This document shows, piece by piece, positions 3,222 to 46,999 of a stretch of DNA of 64,000 bases; position 1 is the stretch's first letter, and each line of letters begins with the position of its first letter. The notes under the pieces are model-generated. The model made no database searches, was not told the DNA's origin, and was given only the letters and a program-made list of their open reading frames with translations. The stretch comes from Shigella phage vB_SsoM_113. The stretch is taken from the sequence record LR746311; one strand, written 5' to 3'. Position numbers and translations under genes: made by a program.

Positions 3222-3360
3222 GATATTTCTTGGATATGTGATACTTTTTCTCGCATTTTATCTATTCACTAGAGCATGTTGGATTGGGTTCTTTAGCACT
3301 CCGGACGGATTTATTTCAATAATTTTATTTTGCATTTCAATGACGGTTCTTGATATATGA
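3220..3360 (+). CDS. small hydrophobic protein (46 aa)
   Basis: GGAG RBS, ATG 3220; MIFLGYVILFLAFYLF; stop overlaps next ATG (ATGA). Confidence 0.35.
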   Translation: MIFLGYVILFLAFYLFTRACWIGFFSTPDGFISIILFCISMTVLDI

Positions 3361-3980
3361 AAAAATATATAACTTATTTAACAATATATAGTGGAGATAA
3401 ACTTCCTCCTTTTTATATTGGATCTACGTCTTTAGATAGGCATTTAGCTGGATATCATGGTTCAGTTTTATCTAAAAAGTATAAGAAAATTTATAATAAA
3501 GAGCTTTCAGATAATCCTCACTTATTTGATTCATGCATTTTAGCTGAATTTGATACGCGTGAAGAAGCTATTAAATGCGAGTTATATTATCAACGATTGC
3601 ATGATGCAGTTAAAAATCCATTATTCTTTAATATGTCATATGCTGCTCCAAAAGGTTCATTTGGAAGAGATAATAAAGGACAAAATCATCCATTATATGG
3701 TTCTCATAATTGTAAAGGAAATATACATTCACATGATCCATTAACAGGAAAATCTGCCTTTTTGCCTTATATTCCAGAAGGTTATGTAAAAGGAAGGTCA
3801 AATAAATTTAAAGCTTCATCACATAATAAAGGTAAAAAATGGTATAATAACGGAGTTAAGCAAATGTTGTGTCATGAACCTCCTGGTCCTGAATGGACAA
3901 AAGGAAAAATTAAAGAACTGGTTTCAAAAGCAGCTAAATTAGGATGGAAAAGACACCATGAAAATACTAAACTTGGGTGA
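3357..3980 (+). CDS. GIY-YIG family homing endonuclease-like protein (Seg-like)
   Basis: N-terminal IY-x8-YIGST motif; C-terminal basic region with KKWYNNG; 23-nt overlap with gene 47. Confidence 0.7.
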   Translation: MKKYITYLTIYSGDKLPPFYIGSTSLDRHLAGYHGSVLSKKYKKIYNKELSDNPHLFDSCILAEFDTREEAIKCELYYQRLHDAVKNPLFFNMSYAAPKGSFGRDNKGQNHPLYGSHNCKGNIHSHDPLTGKSAFLPYIPEGYVKGRSNKFKASSHNKGKKWYNNGVKQMLCHEPPGPEWTKGKIKELVSKAAKLGWKRHHENTKLG

Positions 3981-17651: not shown

Positions 17652-17988
17652 AGATGATTTAGATTTAGATCTAGAAATTATTGATGAATCCCCCTCTTCG
17701 GAGGGGGAAGAAGAAAGAAAAGAACGTCTTTTTAATGAATCTCTTAAGATAATTAAATCTGCCATGGAAAATGTTATCCAGGAGATTGTCATTAAACTAG
17801 AAGATGGTTCTACACACATTGTGTATGTGACAAAATTAGATTGGGTTGATGGAAAAGTCGTAATGGACTTTGCTGTTCTTGACCAAGAAAGAAAAGCTGA
17901 GTTAGCTCCTCATGTAGAAAAATGTATTACAATGCAACTACAAGATGCATTTAATAAAAGGTCAAAGAAAAAATTTAAATTCTTTTAA
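17644..17988 (+). CDS. 40: gp40 head vertex assembly protein (start uncertain, alternative GTG 17626)
   Basis: ORF between uvsX and 41 as in T4; GGAAG RBS before ATG 17644. Confidence 0.65.
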   Translation: MNKDDLDLDLEIIDESPSSEGEEERKERLFNESLKIIKSAMENVIQEIVIKLEDGSTHIVYVTKLDWVDGKVVMDFAVLDQERKAELAPHVEKCITMQLQDAFNKRSKKKFKFF

Positions 17989-17997
17989 GGAGTAAGT

Positions 17998-19425
17998 GTG
18001 GTAGAAATTATTCTTTCCCATCTCATATTTGATCAAGCTTATTTTTCAAAAGTTTGGCCATATATGGATTCAGAATATTTTGAAAGTGGTCCAGCTAAAA
18101 ATACATTCAAATTAATTAAATCTCATGTTAATGAATACCATAGCGTTCCATCTATTAATGCGTTAAATGTTGCATTAGAAAATAGTTCATTTACTGAAAC
18201 AGAATATTCTGGTGTAAAAACACTTATTTCAAAACTGGCCGATTCGCCAGAAGACCACAACTGGTTAGTAAAAGAAACAGAAAAATATGTTCAGCAAAGG
18301 GCGATGTTTAATGCTACGTCTAAAATAATTGAAATTCAAACTAATGCTGAGCTTCCTCCAGAAAAACGAAATAAGAAAATGCCAGATGTAGGTGCTATTC
18401 CTGACATCATGCGCCAAGCATTATCAATTTCATTTGATAGTTACGTTGGTCATGATTGGATGGATGACTACGAAGCACGTTGGCTATCTTATATGAATAA
18501 AGCTCGTAAGGTTCCATTTAGACTCAAAATTCTAAATAAAATTACTAAAGGTGGAGCTGAAACTGGAACACTGAACGTTTTAATGGCTGGTGTTAACGTC
18601 GGTAAGTCATTAGGTCTGTGTTCATTGGCAGCAGATTATTTGCAGCTCGGACATAATGTTCTTTACATTTCCATGGAAATGGCAGAAGAAGTCTGTGCTA
18701 AGCGTATTGATGCTAATATGCTTGATGTTTCTCTTGATGACATTGATGATGGGCATATTTCTTACGCTGAGTATAAAGGAAAAATGGAAAAATGGCGTGA
18801 GAAATCTACTCTTGGACGTTTAATCGTTAAACAGTATCCTACTGGTGGAGCAGACGCTAATACATTCAGGTCTCTCTTGAATGAATTGAAGCTCAAGAAG
18901 AATTTTGTTCCAACAATCATTATTGTTGACTATCTGGGTATTTGTAAATCTTGCCGCATCAGAGTTTATTCAGAAAATAGTTACACAACTGTTAAAGCTA
19001 TCGCAGAGGAATTGCGTGCTCTGGCTGTTGAAACCGAAACTGTTCTTTGGACCGCAGCACAGGTTGGTAAACAAGCTTGGGACTCTTCTGATGTTAACAT
19101 GAGCGATATTGCAGAATCTGCCGGCCTTCCAGCAACAGCCGATTTTATGCTTGCGGTCATTGAAACCGAGGAGCTAGCAGCTGCTGAACAACAACTCATT
19201 AAGCAAATCAAATCACGATATGGTGATAAGAATAAATGGAATAAGTTTTTGATGGGTGTTCAAAAAGGAAATCAAAAATGGGTAGAAATTGAGCAAGATT
19301 CTACTCCAACCGAAGTGAACGAAGTAGCAGGTTCACAGCAGATTCAGGCTGAACAGAATCGCTATCAAAGAAACGAATCCGCTCGAGCTCAGTTAGATGC
19401 TTTGGCAAATGAATTAAAATTTTAG
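17998..19425 (+). CDS. 41: replicative DNA helicase gp41 (DnaB-like)
   Basis: 475 aa, GTG start after GGAG RBS, Walker A GVNVGKS. Confidence 0.95.
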   Translation: MVEIILSHLIFDQAYFSKVWPYMDSEYFESGPAKNTFKLIKSHVNEYHSVPSINALNVALENSSFTETEYSGVKTLISKLADSPEDHNWLVKETEKYVQQRAMFNATSKIIEIQTNAELPPEKRNKKMPDVGAIPDIMRQALSISFDSYVGHDWMDDYEARWLSYMNKARKVPFRLKILNKITKGGAETGTLNVLMAGVNVGKSLGLCSLAADYLQLGHNVLYISMEMAEEVCAKRIDANMLDVSLDDIDDGHISYAEYKGKMEKWREKSTLGRLIVKQYPTGGADANTFRSLLNELKLKKNFVPTIIIVDYLGICKSCRIRVYSENSYTTVKAIAEELRALAVETETVLWTAAQVGKQAWDSSDVNMSDIAESAGLPATADFMLAVIETEELAAAEQQLIKQIKSRYGDKNKWNKFLMGVQKGNQKWVEIEQDSTPTEVNEVAGSQQIQAEQNRYQRNESARAQLDALANELKF

Positions 19426-19985: not shown

Positions 19986-20279
19986 ATGAAAAAATTTATC
20001 TTTGCTGCAATTTTTGCTTTATCTTCTTGCGCTGCTCAGCCTGCTATGGCGGGTTATGACAAAGATTTGTGCGAATGGTCTATGACTGCAGATCAGACTG
20101 AAGTTGAAATTCAAATTGAAGCGGATATTATGAATATCGTTGAACGTGATCGTCCTGAAATGAAAGCTGAAGTGCAAAAACAACTTAAATCTGGTGGTGT
20201 AATGCAGTATAATTATGTTCTGTATTGCGATAAAAACTTTAATAATAAAAATATCATCGCTGAAGTGGTAGGTGAGTAA
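19986..20279 (+). CDS. sp: Spackle periplasmic protein (superinfection exclusion)
   Basis: 97 aa with cleavable signal peptide, at T4 61.3 position. Confidence 0.8.
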   Translation: MKKFIFAAIFALSSCAAQPAMAGYDKDLCEWSMTADQTEVEIQIEADIMNIVERDRPEMKAEVQKQLKSGGVMQYNYVLYCDKNFNNKNIIAEVVGE

Positions 20280-20291
20280 TTAGAGGTTAGT

Positions 20292-20648
20292 ATGTATAGT
20301 TCTGAATTTTCATATTTAAAAATGGAAAAAATTTCATACGATTTTATAGATGAAAAGGTTTATTACAGCTTCCATGAACCACGTTTTAATAGTGAGGTTG
20401 GGTTTATTATAGTAAAAGACAATTTCATTTTAAAAATATATTCGGCATTAAAGGATTTTCACTACGAAAATATTAACCTAAAATTTGATAAAGAAAACGT
20501 TCGTAATTGCGCAGTAACAATTACAGGAAATAAAGGTACATGCGTTATGCTATCTGATGAAATTAATGATTTGTTAAATGATGTAGAAAAAGTTGCTATT
20601 CCATCGATTGATGACCAAATTTTTAATGCTTTTATGAATAGAGGTTAA
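20292..20648 (+). CDS. hypothetical protein (118 aa; position of T4 61.2)
   Basis: ATG ORF with AGAGG RBS. Confidence 0.6.
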   Translation: MYSSEFSYLKMEKISYDFIDEKVYYSFHEPRFNSEVGFIIVKDNFILKIYSALKDFHYENINLKFDKENVRNCAVTITGNKGTCVMLSDEINDLLNDVEKVAIPSIDDQIFNAFMNRG

Positions 20649-20816: not shown

Positions 20817-21845
20817 ATGTCATCAATACCTTGGATTGATAATGAGTTTGCATACCGTGCATTGGCTCATTTACCTAAATTCGCACAAGTAAATAATAGT
20901 TCAACTTTTAAATTACGGTTTAGATGTCCTGTTTGTGGAGATTCAAAAACCGACCAAAATAAAGCCCGTGGATGGTATTATGGTGATAATAATGAAGGAA
21001 ATATTCACTGTTATAACTGTAACTATCATGCACCAATCGGAATATATTTAAAGGAGTTTGAACCTGATTTATATCGTGAGTATATCTTTGAAATAAGAAA
21101 AGAAAAAGGTAAAAGTCGTCCAGTAGAAAAACCTAAAGAACTTCCTAAACAACCTGAGAAGAAAATAATTAAATCTCTTCCGTCATGCATTAGATTAGAT
21201 AAACTGGCGGAAGACCATCCAATTATAAAATATGTAAAAGCTCGTTGTATTCCAAAGGATAAATGGAAATATCTTTGGTTTACAACCGAATGGCCTAAAT
21301 TAGTTAATAGTATAGCGCCAGGAACATATAAAAAGGAAATACCTGAGCCTCGTCTTGTTATTCCAATTTATAATGCTAACGGAAAAGCTGAGTCTTTTCA
21401 AGGACGTGCATTAAAGAAAGATGCTCCTCAAAAATATATCACCATCAAAGCTTATCCTGAGGCAACAAAAATTTATGGAGTCGAACGAGTCAAAGATGGT
21501 GATGTATATGTTCTAGAAGGACCTATAGATTCACTTTTTATTGAAAATGGTATAGCTATTACGGGTGGTCAATTAGACCTAGAAATTGTTCCATTTAAAG
21601 ATAGACGTGTGTGGGTTTTAGATAATGAACCTCGTCACCCTGACACTATTAAACGAATGACTAAATTGGTTGATGCAGGAGAAAGGGTTATGTTTTGGGA
21701 TAAATCTCCCTGGAAATCAAAAGATGTTAATGATATGATTAGAAAGGAAGGTGCAACCCCTAAACAAATTATGGAATATATGAAAAATAATATTGCCCAA
21801 GGGTTGATGGCTAAAATGCGGCTATCTAAATATGCTAAGATTTAA
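20817..21845 (+). CDS. 61: DNA primase gp61
   Basis: 342 aa, zinc-binding CPVCGDS, Toprim region, recognised as T4 gp61. Confidence 0.95.
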   Translation: MSSIPWIDNEFAYRALAHLPKFAQVNNSSTFKLRFRCPVCGDSKTDQNKARGWYYGDNNEGNIHCYNCNYHAPIGIYLKEFEPDLYREYIFEIRKEKGKSRPVEKPKELPKQPEKKIIKSLPSCIRLDKLAEDHPIIKYVKARCIPKDKWKYLWFTTEWPKLVNSIAPGTYKKEIPEPRLVIPIYNANGKAESFQGRALKKDAPQKYITIKAYPEATKIYGVERVKDGDVYVLEGPIDSLFIENGIAITGGQLDLEIVPFKDRRVWVLDNEPRHPDTIKRMTKLVDAGERVMFWDKSPWKSKDVNDMIRKEGATPKQIMEYMKNNIAQGLMAKMRLSKYAKI

Positions 21846-22042
21846 ATTAACCCAACTAAAGCAAATGCTAAATCTACGAATGTATCAAGAGTAATTACTG
21901 GAATATTAACGCCATGAGCAATAGCAATTGGCGATAAAACAAAATTCCAGAGTAAAATTCCTACCATAGCAGAAATAGTAAAAGCTATACGTTTTTTATT
22001 ACCTTTTATGGCATTAACAAGTGCCATTAATTTTTGTACCAT
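21842..22042 (-). CDS. small membrane protein (66 aa), antisense to the early operon
   Basis: AAGGAGG RBS 5 nt before ATG; two hydrophobic segments; late-promoter-like AATAAATA upstream; stop overlaps gene 61 stop. Confidence 0.5.
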   Translation of the reverse strand: MVQKLMALVNAIKGNKKRIAFTISAMVGILLWNFVLSPIAIAHGVNIPVITLDTFVDLAFALVGLI

Positions 22043-22055
22043 ATGTCCTCCTTAT

Positions 22056-22079
22056 TGCTTTATATATTTATTGTATAAT
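22056..22079 (+). promoter_or_regulatory. MotA-dependent middle promoter of gene 56
   Basis: TGCTTTA 22056-22062, 11-nt spacer, TATAAT 22074-22079. Confidence 0.55.
22065..22072 (-). promoter_or_regulatory. late-promoter-like element AATAAATA (one mismatch to TATAAATA)
   Basis: about 22 nt before the ATG of the minus-strand ORF. Confidence 0.35.
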
Positions 22080-22113
22080 TAATCTACTAACCCATGAATT
22101 GAAAGGAAAAATA

Positions 22114-22632
22114 ATGGCTTACTTTAATGAATGTAGTCAACTGATTGAAGGCGCTGATAAAGCTCAAAATGAATACTGGGATATTCTCGGCGATGAAAAA
22201 GACCCGCTGCAGGTTATGCTTGATATGCAGAAATCTCTGCAGGTTCGTTTAGCTAAAGATAAACCTGAATATAACCGTCATCCTGATGATTTGGCTACTG
22301 CAGGTGAAGTTGTTGATTGGCTGCGTAATCAGAAAGATTATATTGATGATGAATTCCGCGAACTTCTGACTTCTCTTGGTGGTATGAGCAATGGCGAAAA
22401 AGATGCATCTGCTGTATGGAAGCCTTGGAAGTCGCAACACGGTGAACGTCGTGAAACTCTGATTACTGATTTGTCTCCACAAGACCAGTTGGAAATTAAA
22501 TTCGAAATGATTGATATTCTTCATTTCGTTCTGAACATGTTCCAAGGCCTCGGTCTTACGGCTGAAGAAATCTTTAAACTTTATTATCTGAAAAATGCTG
22601 AAAACTTCGCTCGTCAAGACCGAGGTTATTAA
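22114..22632 (+). CDS. 56: dCTPase/dUTPase gp56
   Basis: 172 aa from ATG 22114 (MAYFNECSQLIEGADKAQNEYWDILGDEKDPLQVM), recognised as T4 gp56. Confidence 0.93.
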   Translation: MAYFNECSQLIEGADKAQNEYWDILGDEKDPLQVMLDMQKSLQVRLAKDKPEYNRHPDDLATAGEVVDWLRNQKDYIDDEFRELLTSLGGMSNGEKDASAVWKPWKSQHGERRETLITDLSPQDQLEIKFEMIDILHFVLNMFQGLGLTAEEIFKLYYLKNAENFARQDRGY

Positions 22633-44235: not shown

Positions 44236-44245
44236 GGAATAAATA

Positions 44246-46342: not shown

Positions 46343-46999
46343 TTATTTAGCCCTTCCTAATATTCTGGCCGCCTGAGCACATATTGATTCAAGGCGGTCA
46401 TTACTTATATGATCATTTCTATACCAGTACATGGTTATTGTTCCAGCATAGATATTATCCAAATTAAAATATGGACAACTGTACATGTAATTTATTTCGG
46501 GAGTAGGCTTTTTAGTTGGTAAAAAAGCAAATTTTGAGTTTGAATAATAATGACGTCCATTTAAATGAACTGCATATTCATCCATAGTTTTATCAACAGG
46601 ATATCCTCCAAGTGATTTTTCACTTATTGTTGAAGGTAGTTTTCCTTCGTATGCTATAATATCAACAAAATAGTTTAAGTTTTTAGGGCGGAAAGAATAC
46701 ACCGCACTAAAGTCTGCCTCAGATGATATATGAACTATCTGGAGTTGTTCCAGGGCGACAGATTCAAAGCGTGCATTTCTTTCCTTTTCAATAATTTCAC
46801 TGTATGTTTCATACTTTGATTGCTTATAGTACTCAAAGAAACTATCTCCCCTATACCAAACAATCGCCATTATAAACAAAAGAATTACGACAGCTACCCG
46901 GGAAGCAAGAACTTTCCCGGTAGCATTATCTTTGAACAAGCGATCTAGAACACCAAACAGAATATCAGAGGGCGAAAATGATATTCTAGGTGCTGCCAT
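46343..46999 (-). CDS. t: holin (gene t)
   Basis: 218 aa, single N-terminal TM segment plus large periplasmic domain; AAGGAGGG RBS. Confidence 0.93.
   Translation of the reverse strand: MAAPRISFSPSDILFGVLDRLFKDNATGKVLASRVAVVILLFIMAIVWYRGDSFFEYYKQSKYETYSEIIEKERNARFESVALEQLQIVHISSEADFSAVYSFRPKNLNYFVDIIAYEGKLPSTISEKSLGGYPVDKTMDEYAVHLNGRHYYSNSKFAFLPTKKPTPEINYMYSCPYFNLDNIYAGTITMYWYRNDHISNDRLESICAQAARILGRAK

Follow-up and report, generated by a model that had tools for sequence, protein, structure and literature searches.

The 66-codon open reading frame (ORF) that lies on the minus strand between the primase gene 61 and the dCTPase gene 56 of Shigella phage vB_SsoM_113 (LR746311) is best explained as a conserved gene of the PHROG 2024 family that is probably expressed late, encodes a membrane protein, and is independent of dam; the probability of this reading is put at roughly 0.7. 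The conserved unit is a predicted gp55-type late promoter (NATAAATA), followed by a leader of about 11–17 nt with a near-perfect Shine-Dalgarno sequence, and by an ORF of 65–66 codons that runs head-on toward the 3' end of the primase gene. The ORF is already known, being annotated in hundreds of T4-like genomes and catalogued as PHROG 2024. The original prediction, which was made from the window alone (the whole stretch of 64,000 nucleotides analysed here), was accurate in what it observed; its interpretation was right in part, and was wrong on a link with dam and on the novelty of the gene.

The 61-56 junction and the conservation of the ORF

The window belongs to Tequatrovirus, with Shigella phage SHFML-26 as its closest relative, and it maps to SHFML-26 from approximately 103.8 kb down to approximately 39.9 kb. 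The stretch from gene 61 through the ORF to gene 56 showed 98.6% identity to SHFML-26, and 97–98% identity to dozens of other Tequatrovirus genomes. The junction contained the following features:

20817..21845, plus strand: primase gene 61, convergent with the 66-aa ORF
21842..22042, minus strand: coding sequence of the 66-aa protein (PHROG 2024, type A), MVQKLMALVNAIKGNKKRIAFTISAMVGILLWNFVLSPIAIAHGVNIPVITLDTFVDLAFALVGLI; from the ORF list, with an ATG start and 66 codons
22008..22037, plus strand: putative terminator-like hairpin with a T-run, inside the first codons of the 66-aa ORF
22047..22053, minus strand: Shine-Dalgarno sequence AAGGAGG, 4 nt ahead of the ATG (spacer ACAT)
22054..22079, plus strand: putative middle promoter of gene 56, with the MotA-box TGCTT at 22056-22060 and the -10 element TATAAT at 22074-22079
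22065..22072, minus strand: late-promoter-like motif AATAAATA (gp55 type, variant with A at -13), 22 nt ahead of the ATG
22114..22632, plus strand: dCTPase gene 56, divergent from the 66-aa ORF; nothing occupies the slot between the two in this window

The ORF list of the window bears out the claim that genes 61 and 56 have no separate ORF between them other than the 66-aa frame; a 203-aa ORF listed on the plus strand is gene 56 read from a GTG further upstream. The overlap that had been described between the stop of the ORF and that of gene 61 is also present: the two stops share a TTAA palindrome, which gives an overlap of 4 nt (21842-21845). The ribosome-binding site was correctly recognised as AAGGAGG, and only its distance from the start codon has to be amended, from 5 to 4 nt. 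A scan for terminator patterns returned three sites, compared with 0.3 expected in shuffled sequences, and the hairpin at 22008..22037, which has the same sequence in T4, is a possible terminator for gene 61 transcripts.

The 66-aa protein matched phrog_2024 ("unknown function") with an E-value of 5.4e-31, residues 2–66 being aligned with profile positions 1–65 of 65, and proteins already annotated in SHFML-26 and ime09 showed 100% identity to it. The family comprises subtypes A and B, which share approximately 23% identity and which both match the profile (E of about 1e-27 to 1e-31, with Mosigvirus members at about 1e-27). Type A was found in Tequatrovirus, Mosigvirus, Gaprivervirus, and two metagenomic lineages, and type B (139 records) in Dhakavirus, Kanagawavirus, Moonvirus, Gelderlandvirus, Klebsiella phages, and Gaprivervirus; Gaprivervirus VR25 harbored both types in tandem. 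The antisense placement convergent with gene 61 occurred in all genera examined, at least eight within Tevenvirinae, and was seen in Tequatro-, Mosig-, Gapriver-, Dhaka-, Kanagawa-, Moon-, and Gelderlandvirus, as well as in a Klebsiella phage that is unclassified and in the two metagenomic lineages, with the 4-nt stop overlap as the usual arrangement across the lineages examined. At least one Karamvirus genome (EnA02) is without the gene at the primase locus, and some relatives can therefore do without it. A pair of ORFs that precede the primase gene in EnA02 were considered as displaced homologues and were rejected, their translations being unrelated.

The family is narrow and confined to this phage group, as indicated by an HMM search of 1.84 billion representative proteins that returned four clusters below 1e-10. 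Single-sequence scans of IMG/VR returned two and five loci. Scans of the 66-aa protein against Pfam, NCBIfam, and PADLOC gave no match, and neither a sequence-profile search of the PDB nor Foldseek against the PDB gave anything significant for it, while Foldseek against BFVD recovered the family itself and a 63-aa protein of Enterobacter phage CIP9 with 27% identity. Of the small membrane proteins of phages with which the original prediction proposed a comparison, neither holins nor superinfection exclusion proteins provided a match in PHROG or Pfam; the family is PHROG 2024. In the genome records of relatives, the product carries the label "hypothetical protein" or "putative membrane protein".

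The ORF was intact in 686 of the 692 phage records recovered by tblastn at a coverage of at least 80%. Among ten Tequatrovirus sequences, pN/pS in the ORF frame was 0.19, the lowest of the six frames, and the replacements were conservative (e.g., V/I and A/T). Between genera, synonymous sites were saturated (pS 0.7–0.8) and pN was 0.25–0.39, with the length held at 65–66 codons throughout and the motifs kept. Furthermore, AAGGAGG, AGGAGG, or GGAGG was present at all 14 homologous starts compared. The ORF is under purifying selection, and its conservation is far beyond chance. These coding features indicate that the ORF is almost certainly a real gene, and the proposal of an antisense gene that has a strong ribosome-binding site and encodes a small membrane protein is supported, the ORF being intact in hundreds of records and under purifying selection.

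Putative late promoter and expression signals

A late-promoter-like motif had been proposed upstream of the ORF, and the reading of AATAAATA at 22065-22072 as such a motif was strengthened by comparative evidence. When 14 homologous gene starts were aligned on the ATG, NATAAATA ended 16–22 nt ahead of the ATG in 11 of them. The form AATAAATA was shared by the window, Mosigvirus, and one metagenomic lineage; GATAAATA was located upstream of the ORF in T4 and T2, and CATAAATA in Gaprivervirus. A perfect TATAAATA was present in three lineages (Dhakavirus, Klebsiella phage HMGUkp2, and Kanagawavirus). The remaining three starts were not devoid of the motif; they had ATTAAATA, in Moon and CGG4-1, or TATTAATA, in one metagenomic lineage, or belonged to the second gene of the Gaprivervirus tandem pair, for which a promoter of its own is not needed. 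The first promoter base in type A genes was A, G, or C, and never T; this, together with the occurrence of only TATTAATA or ATTAAATA in three lineages, makes the strength of the promoter uncertain.

The sequences upstream of the motif were non-homologous in T4 (the dam leader), T2 (the T2_032 leader), and the window (the gene-56 promoter), and the conserved block therefore begins at the motif. In the window, TGCTT and TATAAT are separated by 13 nt on the plus strand, and the putative middle promoter of gene 56 that they form overlaps the late-promoter motif of the ORF on the opposite strand, both being contained within the same 40 bp. These elements are homologous, by sequence match, to the MotA-dependent promoter P(M)16.53 annotated ahead of gene 56 in the T4 record X01416, which agrees with the MotA-box middle promoter predicted for gene 56 in this segment. 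In Mosigvirus, the late-promoter motif is located outside the interval between the MotA-box and the -10 element of the opposite-strand promoter, and that promoter thus does not account for the motif.

The window contained nine copies of ATAAATA on both strands, compared with 37±6 in shuffled sequences, a four-fold depletion. Five of the nine are located 18–34 nt ahead of a start codon, namely those of the 66-aa ORF, soc, t, 36, and 34; the latter four are late genes, and t also has AATAAATA. Of 50 listed T4 late promoters, 32 match perfectly, whereas A occupies position -13 in nine (PMC2988020), and a survey of five T4-like genomes showed little conservation of T(-13), A and T both being common there (PMC1524935); A(-13) is the commonest natural variant of the T4 late promoter (PMC2988020, PMC1524935). 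The TATAAATA-like box near the gene, some 6 nt ahead of the RNA start, by which T4-type late genes are recognised is represented here by AATAAATA. Matches to sigma-70-like promoters upstream of the ORF were at chance level (five compared with 3.1 expected).

Gp55-dependent late expression of the ORF is well supported by the sequence, and the gene is probably expressed late. After the onset of replication, the late RNA polymerase (gp55/gp33/gp45) would start on the minus strand near position 22059, with a predicted leader of about 17 nt, and the resulting short late mRNA would be translated efficiently. A literature search returned no report of a transcript, ribosome footprint, or peptide for the ORF, nor any study of the 66-aa ORF or of unannotated T4 genes, and a T4 omics paper that was examined treats no unannotated or antisense features.

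On the minus strand, no intrinsic terminator was found from the stop of the ORF to position 19000, and the late transcript would thus probably run antisense into gene 61. Such read-through could mean that the RNA is the key product, a late transcript antisense to gene 61 that silences the primase late in infection, with the ORF being secondary. Most of the lineages examined retain the convergent overlap with gene 61, and at some sites in T4 the two strands are known to be transcribed at different times (PMC2988020), both of which are consistent with this explanation. However, an antisense RNA by itself leaves unexplained the purifying selection at the protein level, the residues that are invariant across approximately 25% identity, the conserved strong ribosome-binding site, and the ORF length that is kept despite saturated synonymous sites, and Gaprivervirus retains two tandem protein paralogs. 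A primary role of the RNA is therefore very unlikely, and an antisense effect on gene 61 could be an added consequence beside the protein.

The expression signals also bear on the possibility of an Imm/Sp-type protein, that is, an early product for immunity or superinfection exclusion that blocks incoming phage DNA or lysozyme. The ORF would encode a small envelope protein, and it is located in the same early-gene neighbourhood as spackle (sp, 19986..20279). In contrast, its strand is opposite to that of all early and middle transcription, the only conserved promoter-like signal ahead of it is the late motif, with sigma-70-like matches at the chance level given above, and no similarity to known exclusion proteins was found in PHROG or Pfam. 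An early exclusion function consequently appears improbable.

Predicted membrane topology and possible function of the product

The protein begins with a short amphipathic helix, and the net charge of its N-terminal 19 residues is +5. The product had been described as a hydrophobic protein of two segments, and this holds for the first of them: residues 19–42 represent a convincing transmembrane helix, with the best 19-residue stretch at 19–37 (summed insertion energy of +0.7 kcal/mol on the Hessa scale and a Kyte-Doolittle mean of 1.96). The C-terminal stretch, residues 47–66, is weakly hydrophobic (+4 to +6 kcal/mol) and contains two conserved Asp residues, so that a second membrane span was not borne out. 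An AF2 model with a mean pLDDT of 73 contained helices at residues 2–13, 16–42, and 52–63. In a 12-sequence alignment of both subtypes, W32, N33, P38, G44, and P48 were invariant, and these residues occupy the outer half of the transmembrane helix and the loop that follows it.

On these grounds, the 66-aa product is very likely a membrane protein. Hydropathy, charge, and the AF2 model suggest that it would be inserted in the inner membrane through a single transmembrane helix (19–42), that its basic N-terminus (+5) would remain on the cytoplasmic side, and that the short acidic C-terminal helix would be located at or in the periplasmic face. The W32-N33...P38...G44...P48 signature would be the working part of the protein, most likely for oligomerisation or for binding another membrane protein.

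Because no homology to proteins of known function was found (Pfam, NCBIfam, PADLOC, and PDB), a guess at the role of the protein can draw only on location and timing. Tentatively, an accessory role related to the envelope or to lysis at the end of infection may be suggested, for which lysis timing, lysis inhibition, and protection from secondary adsorption or superinfection would be the candidates as a guess, and not the function of a stand-alone holin. An extensive hunt for rapid-lysis mutants of T4, by Burch and colleagues in 2011, reportedly yielded only rI, rIII, sp, and t, which argues against a major role of the ORF in lysis inhibition. A wider proposal, which is rather doubtful, is that T4 and most of its enterobacterial relatives possess a fifth, unstudied late inner-membrane protein that takes part in envelope events at the end of infection (tuning T/RI/RIII, stabilising lysis inhibition, or protecting the cell or progeny), and whose transcript runs antisense into the primase gene.

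The features of the protein were also compared with those of holins and pinholins, small membrane proteins made late in infection that trigger lysis by making the inner membrane permeable. The small size and the membrane helix (at least one transmembrane domain being present) agree with a holin, the late-promoter variant is identical to that of the holin gene t, and the invariant Asn in the helix could drive oligomerisation. One family member, A0A482MZV5 of phage OE5505, is named "Holin"; however, this name is found on that single UniRef/BFVD entry, whereas the genome records examined say hypothetical or putative membrane protein. Furthermore, the protein lacks a charged hydrophilic C-terminal tail, since it ends in ...DLAFALVGLI and carries its charge at the N-terminus instead, and its gene is flanked by the primase and dCTPase genes, with no endolysin or spanin gene beside it. 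No holin family was matched in Pfam, PHROG, or NCBIfam, and the canonical T holin is present elsewhere in the window (46343..46999; Pfam Phage_holin_T, E=2e-117). T4 t-null mutants do not lyse, and to our knowledge T4 therefore has no second sufficient holin, which also counts against this function. The 66-aa protein was thus rejected as a canonical holin, with no charged C-terminal tail, no lysis cassette, and a T holin already present, and a holin or pinholin function in general is highly improbable.

The dam slot and comparison with known systems

The original prediction located the ORF in the interval where T4 carries dam. T4 does have dam between genes 61 and 56, but T4 and T2 carry the ORF there too, with 94–95% identity in tblastn. 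The T4 copy is located at NC_000866 17738..17938 (+), in an unannotated gap of 309 bp between dam and gene 61, and it is annotated neither in RefSeq NC_000866 nor in the 1984 record X01416. It has the same AAGGAGG and the same overlap with the stop of gene 61 as the window, and it differs in having GATAAATA where the window has AATAAATA. T4 also contains an insert of 879 bp (99 bp plus dam) between the ribosome-binding site of the ORF and the gene-56 promoter, whereas the window is without this insert. When the two sequences were placed side by side, the match extended through the ORF and its ribosome-binding site, was followed by the T4 insert, and continued with the shared MotA-box promoter of gene 56. 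The link that had been implied between the ORF and dam therefore fails, in that the ORF directly adjoins gene 61, whereas dam forms an insert of its own; the dam cassette fills the neighbouring 61-56 slot in T4 and T2, and its gene is unrelated to the ORF and located on the opposite strand.

The slot was empty in the window, and contained dam in T4, dam and a 181-aa ORF in T2, and a homing endonuclease in Dhakavirus ABTNLS3 and Kosakonia phage 305. T4-type Dam (at least 90% identity) was present in approximately 182 phage records, compared with approximately 502 Tequatrovirus-type records for the ORF (at least 80% identity), and dam was found in about a third of Tequatroviruses. It is an optional neighbour, and its absence is, from these sequence records, the commoner state among Tequatroviruses. 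The absence of dam from the window was correctly noted, as tblastn with T4 Dam at E<=10 gave only noise (best E=2.5), and no dam homologue was found elsewhere, there being no match at E<=1 in the window and the rest of SHFML-26. In the same sequences, the Dam motif [DNS]PP[YFW] was present only within ORF segments of 88 and 103 aa. Since dam-less Tequatroviruses are the majority, the absence of dam in the window is not in itself a finding.

The ORF was also considered as a substitute for dam, and this was rejected, because T4 and T2 carry both genes and dam is present in a minority of records. The synteny of the ORF is fixed, its promoter motif is conserved, and the gene is independent of dam. 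AT-rich DNA yields many short ORFs and inserts such as dam or homing endonucleases are frequent in the adjoining slot, but the probability of a chance ORF, or of mobile-cassette cargo substituting for dam, is negligible, as the ORF remains intact next to an empty slot and next to one with dam, with dam and another ORF, or with an endonuclease, T4 has both dam and the ORF, and conservation in 692 records together with a clear coding signature excludes a chance frame.

As a sequence feature, the ORF is ordinary, a catalogued conserved hypothetical gene. Its significance is that the T4 reference annotation omits, at 17738..17938, a conserved, probably late membrane-protein gene that is apparently well expressed, as judged from its signals, and annotation-based genome-wide T4 screens, proteomics, and transcriptomics would consequently miss it. 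The locus also shows how T-even genomes are built, from a fixed unit (the ORF with its ribosome-binding site and putative late promoter) that is locked onto the primase stop and a variable adjoining slot that is empty or holds dam, dam with another ORF, or a homing endonuclease. The coordinates of the T4 copy and the comparative evidence for the late promoter are useful by-products of the analysis.

Several known systems resemble the ORF in part. Similar to the ORF in the window, the T4 holin gene t has the AATAAATA variant, a leader of about 18–22 nt, and a strong Shine-Dalgarno sequence. The T holin is located in the inner membrane with its N-terminus inside, the arrangement that is also predicted for the ORF product. 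In contrast to the 66-aa protein, which is without a sizeable soluble domain, it consists of 218 aa with a large periplasmic domain, and the two have no sequence similarity. Class II holins and the pinholin S21-68 (approximately 68–71 aa, with two hydrophobic segments) are comparable to the ORF product in size, in having one strong and one weak segment, and in probable late expression. However, the weak segment of the ORF product is C-terminal, unlike the N-terminal SAR helix of S21-68, and, compared with class II holins, the ORF lacks a charged C-terminal tail, a lysis cassette, and an HMM match. Type I toxins are similar only in size and in the convergent overlap with gene 61, and tight repression of translation, as in those systems, is hard to reconcile with a ribosome-binding site that is exposed and very strong. 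The PHROG 2024 members YP_009279028.1 (SHFML-26), RB32ORF030w (RB51), and UCR75184.1 ("putative membrane protein", vB_EcoM_C2-3) have the same position and orientation as the ORF in the window, which shows no difference from this family and is a member of it.

The conserved 66-aa gene in reference genomes and its variants

The ORF encoding the 66-aa membrane protein is conserved and annotated in hundreds of relatives; the reference genome of T4, the RefSeq entry for T2 and JS10 all leave it unannotated. The T4 copy and its upstream motif were located as follows.

NC_000866 17738..17938 (L004, the T4 locus, 3239..3439), plus strand: T4 copy of the 66-aa ORF, unannotated in the T4 RefSeq
NC_000866 17709..17716: motif GATAAATA, upstream of the T4 copy

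In Gaprivervirus, subtypes A and B of the family occurred as tandem genes 8 nt apart (VR25, L005 1995-2192 and 2201-2401). The type B match of VR20 was broken into two pieces, and the match in TH54 and SP18 was limited to residues 28-66 (hits H225, H230 and H231 cover the Gaprivervirus cases). These partial matches suggest that one copy is decaying where the other is present. Among the natural protein variants, P0025 of phage vB_EcoM_OE5505 carried an in-frame 3-residue deletion within the transmembrane helix, which shortened it to 63 aa, and it is this variant that bears the name "Holin"; P0026 was a frameshifted variant of 73 aa with a different C-terminus.

Late-promoter cores across the window

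Both strands of the whole window contained nine copies of the late-promoter core ATAAATA, as compared with 37 ± 6 expected from dinucleotide-preserving shuffles. Late-promoter motifs at stray positions seem to be avoided in this genome. A start codon was located 18-34 nt downstream of five of the nine sites, namely those of the 66-aa ORF, soc, holin t, gene 36 and gene 34.

22065, 23003, 32211, 44239, 47018, 51105, 51609, 56676, 59438: ATAAATA sites, both strands scanned

The motif AATAAATA at 44238-44245 (plus strand) directly adjoined the ATG of a 114-aa ORF with zero leader space; it could have arisen by chance or reflect a leaderless arrangement.

A terminator-like hairpin within the antisense ORF

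22008-22037, plus strand: terminator-like hairpin ATGGCATTAACAAGTGCCAT with a T-run after it

The hairpin lies approximately 165 nt past the gene 61 stop and within codons 6-12 of the antisense 66-aa ORF; therefore, the same bases are coding on the minus strand and possibly double as a terminator on the plus strand. The T4 sequence was identical to that of the window at the hairpin and T-run.

Variable slots around the gene

The short slot that separates the start of the 66-aa ORF from gene 56 is an insertion hot spot.

Contents of this slot
Window, 22043-22113: empty
T4, L004 2347-3225: dam, 879 bp
T2, L015 72-1410: dam and a 181-aa ORF
Dhakavirus ABTNLS3, L023 2897-3445: homing endonuclease
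Kosakonia phage 305, L028 1023-1957: homing endonuclease and a 94-aa ORF

The interval between spackle and gene 61.1 constituted a second variable slot near the 66-aa ORF.

20292-20648, plus strand: 118-aa ORF between spackle and gene 61.1

T4 and SHFML-26 harbored the 208-aa gene 61.2 in place of this 118-aa ORF; vB_EcoM_C2-3 contained the same short version as the window.
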